Source: Candidatus Bathyarchaeota archaeon
GTDB lineage: Archaea > Thermoproteota > Bathyarchaeia > 40CM-2-53-6
DNA length: 64,000 nucleotides
Direction of reading: 5' to 3'
Assembly: GCA_963833125.1 (NCBI GenBank)
Contig: CAWHWX010000016.1
Span: 416,001 to 480,000, forward strand
Shown: one piece after another, positions 18,239-60,751 of the stretch
How the letters are laid out: every line of letters starts with the position of its first letter
How positions within the stretch are numbered: the first letter of the stretch is position 1
Made by a program: the position numbers and the translations under genes
Notes under the pieces: generated by a model
What the model saw: the letters and a program-made list of their open reading frames with translations, nothing else
The model's database searches: none
What the model was told of the DNA's origin: nothing

Positions 18239-20068
18239 ATGATCTCCGAGAGTCAGACCGCATGGCTGGTCGGCGCGTATCACAAAGCAGACGGAGTCGA
18301 ACTCAGACTATTCACCTCACCCGACTTGAAGCCAATCGAATGGGTTGACAGAGACTTTCAACCCTACTACCTCACCAGGCATCAGCAGGGTGAGATGGTC
18401 AAGAAGATAGATCTCTTTACCGGAAATGAAATGGAACTAGAGAAGGTAACCCTCAGAGGAAAACCCGCAAAGGACATCAAGGGCTGGGAGGTGGACGTAG
18501 ACCCTGTCATGAGCTACGCGTACGATAAGGGGCTTCGATTCGGTGTTCTCCACCGCCTCACCAGCAATGGTTGGGTTCCGGAACCGTCACTAGACGAGGA
18601 GGCGAGTTCCCGATTTGAAGCATTATTCGGAGCGATTCGGCGAAGGGATCCACTCAAGTACGCATCTCTGAAGGAACTGTACACATACATCAGCCAACCC
18701 GTACCAAGAATTCCACAGCAAGACCCCCACCCAGCTGAAGTAGATTCGGACGAAGACTACCTCAACGCCTTCCTACTCAGCCGCATCGCGAACCTGCCGC
18801 TAAACCGAACCTACCGTAACTATTCCGTCTCAGACTGGATCCGCTCAATGCTCAACACGTACTACCGCTCCCATAACATACTCATCCCCAACCCTGAAGA
18901 ACTCAAACTCGGAGACACGAGAAAGCAGGTAACAGGCGCCCTAGCTATCGGGCCGGAGCCGGGTACTTACTTCAACATGCATGTCCTCGACTTCGAATCC
19001 CTCTACCCAGGGTGCATAGACGTCTTCAACCTCTCATATGAGACCATGCAATGCCCCCATCCAGAATGTCAAAGCAACCATGTTCCCGGCCAACCACAGT
19101 TGCACGTTTGTACGAAACGACGTGGAATTTACTCCGCTCTCGTAGGCGCTATCCGTGATTTGCGCCTACAGATCTACAAACCAGAGACCAAGAAAGCCGG
19201 CGAAGCTGATGGCAATGCGTTGGCCGCATCCAGACTTTTGAAACTATTTCTAGTCTCCAGCTACGGCGTGACTATCAGGATTCATGGCTTAGCCAGCCCA
19301 CTCCTCGGTGAGGCGATCACCGCCTATGGTAGGCATGTGCTCCAGTCAACTTGGGATTTGGCGAAGATGATGGATCTCAGGCCGAAGTATGGTGACACCG
19401 ACTCCGTCTTCCTAGACAACCCAACCGTGGAGAAGACGGGGAAACTCATTCAACAAGTCAGTAGTGAGTTTAGGCTTCAGTTGGCTTATGATCGCGTCTA
19501 TTCCGTTTGTGTTCTCAGCACCATCAAAGCCTACTTCGGCATCCTACCCAACGGCGAACCAGAAATCAAAGGCTTAGCCATCGCCAAATCCAACTCACCC
19601 CGATTCTTCCAACAAACCTTCCAACAATGCCTAACTCAACTAGCCAAAGGGCGCCGCTCACCTAACGACTTCGAAACCGTCAAACAGCAGCTCCCCCACT
19701 TAGTTGCTGAAGCGATCAATAGGCTTCATAGCAGATCCGTGTCTCTGGCCGACTTAGAGTATCGGGTTGAGCTTAGGGAGGAGCCAGCGGAGAAGTTACG
19801 ATCGAAGAGACTTGCGCAACCCTACCAGGCGGCATGGCTGCTGACAAGGAAAACGCCCCGAGCGAGGGAGACGATTGGGTTTGTGAAGGTGCTTCCGTTC
19901 AGATTACAGGGAAGACAGTTCACCGTCAAACCTACCTCACAAGCAAACCCGAAAGAGATCGACGTGGACGACTACGCCCTCAGCCTCTACGCCTCACTCT
20001 CGCAAGCCTTCGACCCCATGAACATTAAACTCGCACCGAATCCAACCAGCCTCTCAGATTTCGTTTGA
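18239..20068 (+). CDS. polB: family B DNA polymerase, PolB1-like, lacking the 3'-5' exonuclease domain
   Basis: DFESLYP (motif A), KLFLVSSYG (variant motif B), YGDTDS (motif C), KAYFG; C-terminal PIP-like TSLSDFV; only 609 aa. Confidence 0.9.
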   Translation: MISESQTAWLVGAYHKADGVELRLFTSPDLKPIEWVDRDFQPYYLTRHQQGEMVKKIDLFTGNEMELEKVTLRGKPAKDIKGWEVDVDPVMSYAYDKGLRFGVLHRLTSNGWVPEPSLDEEASSRFEALFGAIRRRDPLKYASLKELYTYISQPVPRIPQQDPHPAEVDSDEDYLNAFLLSRIANLPLNRTYRNYSVSDWIRSMLNTYYRSHNILIPNPEELKLGDTRKQVTGALAIGPEPGTYFNMHVLDFESLYPGCIDVFNLSYETMQCPHPECQSNHVPGQPQLHVCTKRRGIYSALVGAIRDLRLQIYKPETKKAGEADGNALAASRLLKLFLVSSYGVTIRIHGLASPLLGEAITAYGRHVLQSTWDLAKMMDLRPKYGDTDSVFLDNPTVEKTGKLIQQVSSEFRLQLAYDRVYSVCVLSTIKAYFGILPNGEPEIKGLAIAKSNSPRFFQQTFQQCLTQLAKGRRSPNDFETVKQQLPHLVAEAINRLHSRSVSLADLEYRVELREEPAEKLRSKRLAQPYQAAWLLTRKTPRARETIGFVKVLPFRLQGRQFTVKPTSQANPKEIDVDDYALSLYASLSQAFDPMNIKLAPNPTSLSDFV

Positions 20069-21586: not shown

Positions 21587-21834
21587 GAAGTCTTCACCTC
21601 GATGGGGTCGGCAGTCGGATGTTGGACACGAGGTGCGGAGCACGTTTGATGGTGACGCCACTTGGGTTTGGCTTGGGGGTGTGGCGTCATTGGGTGCGTG
21701 TTATCCTCGTGTCCAACGACGCTGACTGCCATGGACGGTCCATACACTTTTGATGGTATATTAATGTTTCATTTATGGTACGTTAATATACCGCCGTGAC
21801 TAATCTCTCTTAGAAATTTAGAGGAGGTTGCAAC

Positions 21835-21992
21835 ATGAACGGAGATTCAAAGCGAAGCTTCGCTGTAGCCCTTGCTTCATTCGCGATAGGCGCCGTAGTC
21901 GCCGGGGTACTCGGAAACCCGAAGACACGACAGCGCATCGCGGTCTGAGCAAGAAGCTGGCTAAGAGAGCTAGGGCAGCTGACCTAGCGTAA
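21835..21992 (+). CDS. small single-TM protein, YtxH-like (probable frameshift)
   Basis: Strong SD GAGGAGG; MNGDSKRSFAVALASFAIGAVVAGVLGNPKTRQRI. Confidence 0.4.
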
Positions 21993-22139
21993 ACAACCCA
22001 CGGGAGCGGCAATCGAACCGCTCCTTTCCTCTCATTCTAAATTCGAATCTGATCCGGCCTCTCTGTTTTCCGTCCCGACTTGATGAAGCTTAGAGCCTTA
22101 GGAAGGCTTAATTCTCAAGTCCGAATTCTCCATTGCAAT

Positions 22140-22202
22140 TAGGGCGCGTGAGTGGGGCCTCCCACCCGATTGCGCCAAACAAACCCCGGAGTAGGGAGGT
22201 AA
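22140..22202 (+). promoter_or_regulatory. structured 5' leader of queT, candidate riboswitch
   Basis: GGCGCG/TGCGCC stem, inner GTGGG/CCCAC stem, and CCTCCC complementary to the SD GGGAGG. Confidence 0.45.
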
Positions 22203-22206
22203 ATGG

Positions 22207-22743
22207 ATGAAAGCTAAGAGTTCAATCAATATCGCATTGACCGCAGTATTCGCCGCACTTTATTCTCTAGGCGTAGTATTTCTTGCCCCGATCAGTTTTC
22301 AAATCTTCCAAGTTAGAGTAGCAGATGCCCTGCTGCCTCTCGCTATGCTATTTGGTTGGCCTGCCGTTCTAGGACTATCGCTAGGTGCTTTCGTGGCAAA
22401 CATATTCGGCGGTCTTGGGCCGGTCGATATGATCGGAGGTTCCGTAGCGAATTTCATAGCGACATTCGTTGCCTGGCGATTGGTAGCCAGTAGGGGAAGG
22501 CGTTGGGCGTTGGTTGGGGTTGGGGCGGAGATTGTTATCGTCACGCTTGTGGTTGGGTCCTACTTGAGCTACTTGCTCGCTATGCCGATAGAAATTAGCT
22601 GGTTAGGGGTCTTCCTTGGAAGCGTAATCGCGATTGGAGTGCTCGGATCGATACTGTTCTTTGCACTCTCAACCGAAAGAATTGCAGCCCTGTTGAGGTC
22701 ATACGGTCTAGGAATCTACACGCAGCGGCCCGAGAAGAAGTAG
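22207..22743 (+). CDS. queT: QueT-family (COG4708) ECF S component, 7-deazaguanine precursor transporter
   Basis: AALY...LAPISF..FQVRVADAL..L, G...G.FVAN.FG..G..D...GS signature. Confidence 0.85.
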   Translation: MKAKSSINIALTAVFAALYSLGVVFLAPISFQIFQVRVADALLPLAMLFGWPAVLGLSLGAFVANIFGGLGPVDMIGGSVANFIATFVAWRLVASRGRRWALVGVGAEIVIVTLVVGSYLSYLLAMPIEISWLGVFLGSVIAIGVLGSILFFALSTERIAALLRSYGLGIYTQRPEKK

Positions 22744-22750
22744 GAAGGAT

Positions 22751-23430
22751 TCACCTCTTCGGTCTGGAGCTGATGCGCGAGGTCTTCGAGAGTAGAGTAT
22801 TCGGATCGCGAGCGAGCCGCCGCATGATTCGGATTGGTGGGGGCGCAGGTGGACGGCCTCGCAGGACCATTCGATCAATCCACAGAGTCGTCGGTGGTTC
22901 GACATTCAACTGCCACAACATCGCCTCAACTTCGCCAAGGTGGAGTAAGTGCTCCGTCGTGCACTGCGCTAGGGCTGCCTCGCGAGTTACCTTCAGAGGA
23001 TGCCCGAGCCGAACCCAACGGACGACTTTCTGAAGCGCTTGCTCGTTGTCCCATCGTGATAAGTAGTTCTCGGACAGGTCGGTGATAGTGCGCAGACGCT
23101 CTCTGACAGAGGCAATGTCGTTATACCGCCGCTTTGACACTTGGCAGAATCGTTGGGCCACGGCTCCGCTATACCCTGGCAGAATTTCGTTATGTGATGT
23201 TCCTCGACGTACGCGAGATGGAGAAACAGATTTCGAAACGAATTGAGGCTGACTTCCCGATTTCGAGTAAATTCCTTCCAACCAAGACTCGCGGCGGTCT
23301 CGAAGAAGTCGCCTCTTAGTTCATGCACAAACCGCAAGAGAGCGATTATGTTGACCTTCGTTCGGCGAGTCGGACCGTCGAAGTTTTTCCCAGTCAAGCC
23401 CATATTCTCCAGCACTGATTGGCGCGCCAA
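22751..23430 (-). CDS. DinB/DUF664-family protein (frameshifted; start uncertain)
   Basis: SFRNLFLHLAYVEEH and TEHLLHLGE metal-site pattern across two ORFs. Confidence 0.65.
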
Positions 23431-23529: not shown

Positions 23530-24041
23530 CGATCGCATCCATTCAACTGATCCTTGGCGACATCACGGGGCAGAGGGTAGACGCAATTGTGAACGCTGCG
23601 AATACAAGTCTGCTCGGTGGCGGTGGTGTGGATGGAGCGATTCATCGAGCTGCGGGTCCTAGACTGCTTGAGGAATGCCGTAAGCTGGGAGGTTGTCCAA
23701 CTGGTCAAGCGAAAATAACCACGGGAGGCAATTTACCCGCTAAATTTGTCATTCATACCGTTGGCCCGATCTGGAGAGGGGGCGAGAATCAGGAAGATCA
23801 ACAACTACGTGCCTGCTACTTGAATTCTATGAAACTCGCAGAGCAGAATGGGGTTCGAACAATCGCTTTCCCATCAATTAGCACAGGCGCTTATGGATTC
23901 CCGATTGAGAGAGCCTCAAGAATCGCTGTAGCCACCGTCCGCGAATGCCTCGATAAAACGCCACACGTTCAAACCGTTCTCTTCGTCTGTTTTTCCCAAT
24001 CCGACTATGAAGTTTACCAAGAAGCGCTCAAGGCGGAATAA
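23530..24041 (+). CDS. macrodomain O-acetyl-ADP-ribose deacetylase (YmdB-like)
   Basis: GDIT...[27 protein letters not shown] and [11 protein letters not shown]; the frame extends upstream of the listed ORF, true start unclear. Confidence 0.92.
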
Positions 24042-47648: not shown

Positions 47649-47744
47649 TGGTGCGGCCGCCGGGATTCGGACCCGGGTCGTTGGCTTGGAAGGCCAATGG
47701 ACGCGCAAAACGCAATGTCCTAGACCAGACTAGACTACGGCCGC
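47649..47744 (-). tRNA. tRNA-Gly(TCC) with 18-nt intron at 27/28; CCA encoded
   Basis: GCGGCCG/CGGCCGC acceptor stem; TTGGC-CTTCCAA-GCCAA anticodon arm after splicing; BHB with GGAC/GTCC helix and two ATT bulges. Confidence 0.9.
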
Positions 47745-60649: not shown

Positions 60650-60751
60650 TGGCGGGCCCGCTGGGATTTGAACCCAGGATTTGCGGCTCCGCAGGCCTTC
60701 GGGAGAGTTGTAGCTCTCTCACCGTCCTGATCCAGACTAGACTACGGGCCC
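60650..60751 (-). tRNA. tRNA-Arg(GCG) with 23-nt intron at 29/30; CCA encoded
   Basis: GGGCCCG/CGGGCCC acceptor stem; GTGGC-CTGCGGA-GCCGC after splicing; intron hairpin GAGAG/CTCTC; T-loop TTCAAAT. Confidence 0.9.

Follow-up and report, generated by a model that had tools for sequence, protein, structure and literature searches.

A conserved RNA element lies in front of queT in a Candidatus Bathyarchaeota genome, within the 64,000-nucleotide (nt) stretch of DNA that was analysed here and that we call the window (contig CAWHWX010000016.1 of assembly GCA_963833125.1, positions 416,001 to 480,000). The element occupies positions 22140-22209 of the plus strand, on which all features lie unless stated otherwise, and makes up the complete queT 5' untranslated region (UTR) up to the start codon. 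Comparison of related leaders makes it likely that this RNA is a translational OFF riboswitch of a new structural class that controls queT in response to a free 7-deazaguanine, preQ0 being the best candidate. To our knowledge, few riboswitch classes are known in Archaea. An earlier reading of the letters alone, termed here the sequence-only reading, had proposed a translational 7-deazaguanine switch at this place, and the comparative analysis presented below supports that interpretation. All strings on which the proposal was built were found in place, and most of the pairings drawn between them, although not all, reappear in the alignments.

Conservation and likely promoter of the queT leader

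The downstream gene had been called queT, and its family assignment bears this out: the open reading frame (ORF) at 22207-22743 encodes 178 amino acids (aa) and matches the QueT family PF06177 with an E-value of 8.5e-27 and 94.6 bits (Pfam gathering cut-off 33.7). It is presumed to be the regulated gene. A QueT protein query returned homologues in 43 of 61 related genomes, and about 60 nt before the start codon were strikingly similar across 30 loci whose QueT proteins are 40-100% identical to that of the window. A MAFFT alignment of orthologous leaders (A1, 30 leaders, omitting the divergent leader L028 and the duplicate L002) contains 23 invariant columns. In a comparison of 28 loci, which excludes the window's own copies and one divergent locus and covers QueT proteins 40-71% identical to the window's, identity to the window was 86% in the 60 nt of the leader, 60% in the 60 nt further upstream and 70% in the first 180 nt of the coding sequence. 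The leader is better conserved than the queT gene itself. Related genomes are non-independent samples.

A covariance model built from 30 orthologous leaders (R1) scores the window leader at 87.8 bits (E 3.6e-18, model positions 1-69), the window itself being among the training sequences. The motif ranges from 55 to 80 nt in length and includes the Shine-Dalgarno (SD) sequence. We reduced 157 distinct match sequences to 156 by dropping L133 (E 0.0086), a probable false match that precedes a methyltransferase-like ORF. Of these, 150 entered a MAFFT alignment that was fitted to no structure (A3), leaving out L116 at a contig end, the near-duplicates L037 and L057, and the weak matches L184, L131 and L132. 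Fractions of 150 sequences given below refer to this set.

The likely archaeal promoter of the leader consists of a purine-rich stretch resembling a B recognition element (BRE) at 22101-06 and the TATA-like box CTTAATTC at 22107-14. Upstream sequence was long enough in 154 loci, and over these the A+T content is highest at -32 to -22 from model position 1, reaching 82-87% at -28 to -25, with an A-rich stretch at -37 to -32 before this peak; the TATA-like box of the window falls at -33 to -26. The usual archaeal spacing between TATA box and start places the predicted transcription start at 22138-22142, three bases 5' of the first stem. Since this start coincides approximately with model position 1, the motif would represent the entire 5' UTR. 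A start downstream of the stems would have spoken against the sequence-only reading; the conserved BRE/TATA signal instead places the likely start at the 5' edge of the stems. In a single-sequence fold the 5' flank paired over a long distance with the start region; this pairing was set aside because it probably involves bases upstream of the transcript. An inverted repeat ACTTGA...TCAAGT at 22078-22120 overlaps the BRE/TATA-like box; it gave an Rfam chance match (E 1.2) and is not conserved at the second queT locus of the same genome.

Covarying helices and a predicted pseudoknot

The outer stem of the leader, P1, joins GGCGCG at 22143-48 to UGCGCC at 22171-76, as had been proposed from the letters. 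In A3, 99.1% of its helix cells are paired. Pair 8-37 occurs as GC in 129 sequences and as CG in 21 and is never broken, while the outer pair 4-42 appears as GC (104), AU (24), GU (8), UA (5) and CG (2). The closing G-U of P1 is conserved in 149 of 150 sequences. The stem is followed inwards by loop L1 (22149-22157), which consists of a conserved UGAG and then a G-run.

RNAalifold, run on A1, did not return the two stems of the sequence-only reading; its consensus is an 11-pair helix between the strand CCUCCCACCCG at 22158-68 and 22187-99, in which five pairs change on both sides. The 3' strand reads CGG-A-GU-A-GGGAGG (22187-22199) and ends in the SD sequence at 22194-22199, so that the 5' strand, whose first six bases CCTCCC (22158-63) had been suggested to pair with GGGAGG, is an anti-SD strand. 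That suggested pairing turns out to be one part of a longer covarying helix. The anti-SD:SD helix crosses P1, and both together therefore form an H-type pseudoknot. Two further loops complete it: the junction L2 (22169-22170), which is AU in the window and a single U in most relatives (A1 and A3), and the loop L3 AAACAAACCC (22177-22186), which combines the A-rich linker AAACAAA (22177-83) with a CCC and whose columns A40, A42-A44 and C46-C48 are invariant or nearly so in 150 sequences.

With P1 and the pseudoknot helix taken together, 91.0% of the cells in A3 are paired, compared with 41-60% when the 3' partners are slid by one to three columns. For covariation the helices score 0.265, a value that none of 500 shuffles reached and that compares with 0.090 at most for the slid partners. 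A further alignment, A4, holds 84 distinct sequences from several orders, aligned to the model and fitted to the pseudoknot, with P1 absent from the model; it yields 95.2% paired cells versus 47-59% slid and a score of 0.268 versus at most 0.071, and all eight outer pseudoknot pairs change on both sides. Whole strands are swapped in places, with CCUCC:GGAGG replaced by CCACC:GGUGG, CAUCUC:GAGAUG or UCCGAC:GUCGGA. Since the swaps include the SD-like strand, it is the pairing that is conserved and not the SD alone. The innermost three pairs, CCG:CGG, are conserved in 144-149 of the 150 sequences. The covariation expected by the sequence-only reading for orthologous leaders was thus found, and 22140-22209 is a real, conserved RNA element. 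By the evidence of these alignments, the leader is predicted to be an H-type pseudoknot able to hide the ribosome-binding site.

A competing hairpin on the anti-SD strand

The anti-SD strand has a second partner. Its bases 22161-65 (CCCAC) double as the 3' arm of an inner hairpin whose 5' arm, GUGGG at 22152-56, may be viewed as an anti-anti-SD. The sequence-only reading had drawn this hairpin inside P1, and it is recovered in the alignment: columns 13-17 and 26-30 are 93.4% paired over the 150 sequences and covary, pair 14-29 being UA in 118, GC in 15 and CG in 3. The loop of P1 folds at -3 kcal/mol or below in 95% of the 150 sequences. Hairpin and pseudoknot both use 22161-65 and are therefore mutually exclusive. 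The anti-SD strand has two mutually exclusive pairings, both of them covarying, as is the case in an expression platform. In crude nearest-neighbour terms, P1 plus hairpin amounts to -18.5 kcal/mol, and P1 (-9.0) is joined in the other state by a pseudoknot duplex of -16.0 kcal/mol, before a pseudoknot penalty that was not computed; by this rough estimate the two states are close in energy.

The alternative folds of the sequence-only reading hold in one part. Anti-SD:SD pairing and the inner hairpin do exclude each other, whereas P1 does not take part in the switch and persists in both states; the SD-hiding state is therefore the pseudoknot. The accompanying pairing of GGGG (22154-57) with CCCC (22184-87) was rejected. 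Three of its G-C pairs show no change on both sides, the fourth is 64.6% paired, and the pairing crosses the anti-SD:SD helix, which uses C22187. An extension of P1 by the G-run via CCCG, considered for the variant L008, was dropped after RNAfold put the G-run on CCCAC in the loops inspected, and a K-turn reading of the leader was rejected as well.

Genes and genomes that carry the motif

The motif always stands in sense orientation and ends at a start codon. Pooling 216 loci and removing identical ones left 202 instances, 178 of which precede a QueT-like ORF. Nine precede a membrane protein of 224-234 aa that resembles ECF-S components, five precede QueE (one of them in the window's genome) and one QueC; seven lie at a contig end and two are unclear. 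In the class search, 84 of 92 downstream ORFs have a Pfam QueT match (E at most 0.001), and a local QueT hidden Markov model was built from 84 of the 92 ORFs of set A2, eight having been left out by eye. For the QueE instances, the top five NCBIfam matches are all QueE and span the full length, with best E-values of 1e-25 to 1e-35, although they score below the curated cut-offs; the QueC instance scores 195 bits against an NCBIfam cut-off of 150. Operons also occur, in which the motif precedes QueT-QueC or precedes the membrane protein followed by an amidotransferase-QueC-like ORF. The motif precedes non-homologous genes for the transport and the synthesis of one metabolite, an association by which riboswitches are recognised. 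The link to 7-deazaguanines, first proposed from queT alone, gains from this regulon, which extends to queE, queC and a second transporter family as such a sensor predicts.

The multi-pass membrane protein of 224-234 aa found no match in Pfam or NCBIfam. In the ESM atlas, the clusters nearest to it bear the name "ECF transporter S component" (score 0.95), and the position of the protein behind the motif makes it a candidate new 7-deazapurine importer. It was found at L290 (837-1508, minus strand), L294, L047, L053, L056, L057, L152, L174, L198, L306 and L317. Two of these loci, L290 and L294, carry a further ORF behind the membrane protein gene, some 650 nt past the motif. This ORF has at least about 280 aa, begins with MCSIAG in the manner of a class-II amidotransferase N-terminus and continues with a QueC-like PP-loop part; the whole resembles the GAT-QueC fusion that is discussed for archaeosine synthesis.

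The window's genome itself holds three copies of the motif: the one studied here, one at a near-identical queT locus on another contig, and a diverged copy of 60 bits. The diverged copy precedes a QueE-like ORF (TIGR04349, E 9.5e-21) and then QueC, and its SD-like GGGAGC is matched by GCUCCC. The genome also encodes TGT, two QueC, QueD and a weak QueF-like match (27.8 bits). With TGT, QueC and QueD encoded, the organism makes and uses 7-deazaguanine. The QueE-like gene behind the diverged copy (L038 1562-2214, G000:C27) is split over two overlapping frames, and the TGT match (G000:C15:15270-16242) is likewise split over two frames; both are assembly errors or pseudogenes. The second queT locus (G000:C11:11004-11604; L001, L037), which has the leader, encodes a protein 97% identical to the window's and could be a true duplicate or come from a second strain in the bin (contamination 6.99%).

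Taxon names used here are the record titles of metagenome-assembled genomes (MAGs). R1 matches were found in 18 of 23 genomes of the window's genus and in 91 of 151 sampled genomes of its class, or 69 of 94 when only high-quality genomes are counted. The sample of the window's phylum gave matches in 27 of 151 genomes, those outside the class falling into four families (9 of 15, 3 of 3, 2 of 2 and 1). The order of a Hodarchaeota-titled genome has matches in 7 of 7 genomes, and that of a Nitrososphaerota-titled genome in 17 of 41. In the latter order, 7 of 28 newly read instances precede ORFs that are QueE-like by residue pattern only, which adds five QueE-like cases to those counted above, and one genome carries three copies of the motif, two before QueE-like genes and one before QueT. 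Usually there is one copy per genome. A weak second R1 match at L259 (850-908, minus strand; 21.1 bits, E 0.0074), in another family and about 600 nt from the main match, is without the AAACCC loop and is probably due to chance. In a pattern scan of a public genome collection, most of the matches listed are titled Bathyarchaeia or Bathyarchaeota. Among the at least 120 pattern matches listed, 100 pass R1 (69 of 80 and 31 of 40). Bacterial titles were confirmed for 19 of the 20 that fail, and these failures are the expected chance matches; three contigs that pass among the matches listed also bear bacterial MAG titles and may be misbinned.

Proposed mechanism and alternative explanations

Importers and biosynthetic enzymes of one metabolite lie behind one leader, and end-product repression is therefore to be expected. 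In the mechanism that we propose, the RNA would start at about 22140, and P1 (22143-48/22171-76) would be formed in both states. Without ligand, the G-run at 22152-56 would pair with 22161-65, occupying the anti-SD strand and leaving the SD (22194-99) free, so that the gene would be ON. With ligand, the anti-SD strand (22158-68) would pair with 22187-99 to create the H-type pseudoknot together with P1, burying the SD and turning the gene OFF. All of the conserved parts, namely P1, its top G-U, the one-base junction, L3 and the CCG:CGG pairs, belong to the pseudoknot state, which is thus the state that the ligand most likely stabilises. The pocket would be situated at the junction and be composed of the closing G-U, the U of L2, the A-rich/CCC loop L3 and the invariant CCG:CGG pairs; L3 is a candidate ligand-pocket or minor-groove strand. 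The most likely ligand is preQ0, because it is preQ0 that archaea use as the free base put into tRNA. In the available text of two papers, archaea are described as making no queuosine and as inserting preQ0 into tRNA, where it is converted to archaeosine (PMC5372724; PMC5485725).

A number of observations weigh against this reading. The element's signal is comparative, because the window sequence alone folds no better than chance: for 22125-22215 the z-score is -1.23, and of 200 shuffles, 23 did as well or better. Pair counts on A4 lean towards the modelled pseudoknot helix, to which that alignment is fitted, and some of the two-sided changes counted in A3 come from the register shifting between CCUCCC and CCUCC variants. 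Of the 150 sequences in A3, 77 lack the outermost pair of the pseudoknot helix, and each of two middle pairs is broken in 33-37; the core CCG:CGG pairs and loop L3 hardly vary and so carry no covariation. The inner hairpin has a median z of only -1.0 against shuffles, as a G-run followed by a C-run pairs easily. Sixty of the 151 class genomes are without an R1 match, and the complete preQ0 cluster on contig C1 of the window's genome is without a copy of the motif. The weak QueF-like match of that genome keeps preQ1 or another derivative in play as the ligand. Contigs of four metatranscriptome runs, compared with 21700-23000, contained nothing on the leader or queT and are uninformative on expression and start.

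Among the alternatives, a riboswitch of this fold whose ligand is neither preQ0 nor preQ1, such as 7-carboxy-7-deazaguanine, archaeosine base, queuine or guanine, seems unlikely to us. The analysis does not discriminate between 7-deazaguanines, and a regulon of QueT, QueE and QueC would suit any late product of the pathway; bacterial QueT is described, in the available text of a 2024 review, as a preQ1 transporter (PMC11625349). QueE and QueC act before preQ0, however, which makes an intermediate upstream of them an odd repressor, and guanine would not explain a regulon of 7-deazaguanine genes only. In the available text of PMC5372724, preQ0 is moreover the last free base of the archaeal pathway.

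Less probable again is a translational operator whose partner is a protein, such as a regulator signalling the status of tRNA modification or of 7-deazaguanine, with no small molecule bound by the RNA. Sequence analysis cannot separate protein-binding from metabolite-binding RNA, and the conserved unpaired UGAG and AAACCC could be protein contacts. Yet no candidate regulator gene accompanies the motif in the loci read, and the motif is conserved across several archaeal orders with differing neighbours. Small riboswitches, in addition, are typically built in this way, as compact pseudoknots whose junction is invariant and whose own helix hides the SD.

That the leader is a ligand-independent structured 5' UTR, acting as a constant damper on translation, as an RNA thermometer or as a stability element, we regard as very improbable. 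An SD-hiding helix would by itself reduce translation, but neither damper nor thermometer needs near-invariant unpaired nucleotides and two competing pairings, and the genes behind the element (QueT, QueE, QueC and the second membrane family) are non-homologous members of a single pathway. Hardly any credence is due to a DNA operator just downstream of the TATA box or to a short leader peptide (20 codons, GTG at 22148 to TGA at 22208-10): archaeal repressors often bind just downstream of the transcription start, the P1 inverted repeat lies at +4 to +37 of the predicted start, and the open frame is present in the window, but the G-U kept in 149 of 150 sequences and the alternation of G-U with G-C or A-U in several pairs are explicable only at the level of RNA, the second helix is asymmetric and takes in the SD, and indels of 1-2 nt in L1 and L3 break any reading frame.

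Returning to the preQ0-sensing switch, the observations read jointly tip slightly in favour of a first archaeal preQ riboswitch. It would be a fourth structurally distinct class, probably tuned to preQ0 rather than preQ1, widespread in Bathyarchaeia-titled genomes and present in Methanomethylicota-, Nitrososphaerota- and Asgard (Hodarchaeota/Promethearchaeota)-titled orders; it would govern both salvage and de novo synthesis of 7-deazaguanines and would mark the ECF-S-like family as a new 7-deazapurine importer. If true, this adds a new natural aptamer fold for 7-deazaguanines and means that Bathyarchaeia and related uncultured archaea control tRNA-modification precursors at the level of translation, by sequestering the SD. 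It would further provide a handle to predict which archaea salvage preQ0 and which make it, and would give the membrane protein family behind the same leader, so far unannotated, a function. At about 70 nt, the element is directly accessible to in vitro work.

Other features of the window

The genes on either side of queT are unrelated to 7-deazaguanine metabolism: upstream lies a family-B DNA polymerase (18239-20068; PF00136, E 6.7e-31) and downstream a Macro-domain protein (23589-24041; PF01661, E 4.1e-49). Between the polymerase and the leader, a small hydrophobic ORF of 38 codons (21835-21948) has a strong SD in front of it (21821-27) and, further on, a GC hairpin that ends in a U-rich tail (21999-22028). 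One metatranscriptome contig of 167 nt, about 91% alike, falls on 21828-21944, over this ORF. In the sequencing runs that match the window, the share of sampled words recovered is small and does not exceed 0.18. The two tRNA matches of the window, at 47652-47744 and 60653-60751 on the minus strand, span 93-99 nt compared with a model of 71 positions, and these long spans suggest intron-bearing archaeal tRNA genes.

Comparison with known systems

The sequence-only reading had seen no evident match to the preQ1 classes, and Infernal searches of Rfam 15 agree for the window and for 20 diverse representatives of the motif. At gathering score, the 64 kb gave only two tRNAs; a scan of 21950-22300 at E up to 10 gave four chance matches and no riboswitch; and the 20 representatives, again at E up to 10, matched no family, preQ1-I, preQ1-II and preQ1-III included. 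A literature search, to which subscription papers and supplementary motif lists were external, yielded no report of a queT or preQ riboswitch in archaea.

SAM-II and guanidine-III are small H-type pseudoknot riboswitches that bury the SD. The archaeal leader shares their topology and translational control and differs in conserved nucleotides, ligands and gene sets, the comparison having been made through Rfam models only. Thiamine pyrophosphate (TPP) and fluoride riboswitches have been reported in Archaea, in both cases as archaeal representatives of classes that were originally defined in bacteria. Like them, the queT element is a metabolite-sensing leader in an archaeon, with sensing here predicted; unlike them, it is seen almost only under archaeal titles among the matches listed.

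What is known of preQ1 riboswitches is taken here from the available text of the 2024 review already mentioned, which describes three classes, all from bacterial phyla, and whose main text, to that extent, is without the word "archaea" (PMC11625349). One of them, preQ1-III (RF02680), of about 100 nt, is an HLout pseudoknot from Ruminococcaceae and metagenomes whose expression platform is far from the pocket; it resembles the archaeal motif in being a pseudoknot found upstream of queT with anti-SD:SD pairing (PMC11625349). The archaeal motif, at 55-80 nt, has the SD inside and does not match RF02680.

With preQ1-II (RF01054, the "COG4708 motif") the archaeal leader has in common its place in the queT 5' UTR, translational control and an SD inside a pseudoknot helix (PMC11625349), as well as the metabolite family and OFF logic that are predicted for it. 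Class II, however, has an HLout pseudoknot fold built from four pairing regions (P1-P4), with a hairpin inside its 3' loop, and is confined to Bacillota (PMC11625349), whereas the archaeal motif consists of two helices and a competing hairpin, has about 10 unpaired nt in L3 in most of the 150 sequences, and gives no RF01054 match even at E up to 10.

The remaining class, preQ1-I (RF00522, types I-III), is an H-type pseudoknot; an A-rich strand runs between its P1 and P2 3' strands, SD nucleotides lie in P2, and it controls que biosynthesis operons and transporters (PMC11625349). The shared H-type fold and A-rich strand are a likeness in topology only. The archaeal motif is about twice the size, with an L1 of at least 9 nt that harbours an alternative hairpin and a P2 of 11 pairs. 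In class I, the specificity cytosine stands directly 5' of the P1 3' strand, as UC or AC (PMC11625349); in the archaeal motif, G-U precedes this strand (G-A-U in the window), with T31 and T32 invariant or nearly so in 150 sequences. No RF00522 match appears at gathering score or at E up to 10, and the review lists bacterial phyla only for class I (PMC11625349). From its sequence and predicted fold, the archaeal element appears to work in the manner of a preQ1-II or preQ1-I translational switch and to belong to neither class, and the leader probably represents a riboswitch class of its own.

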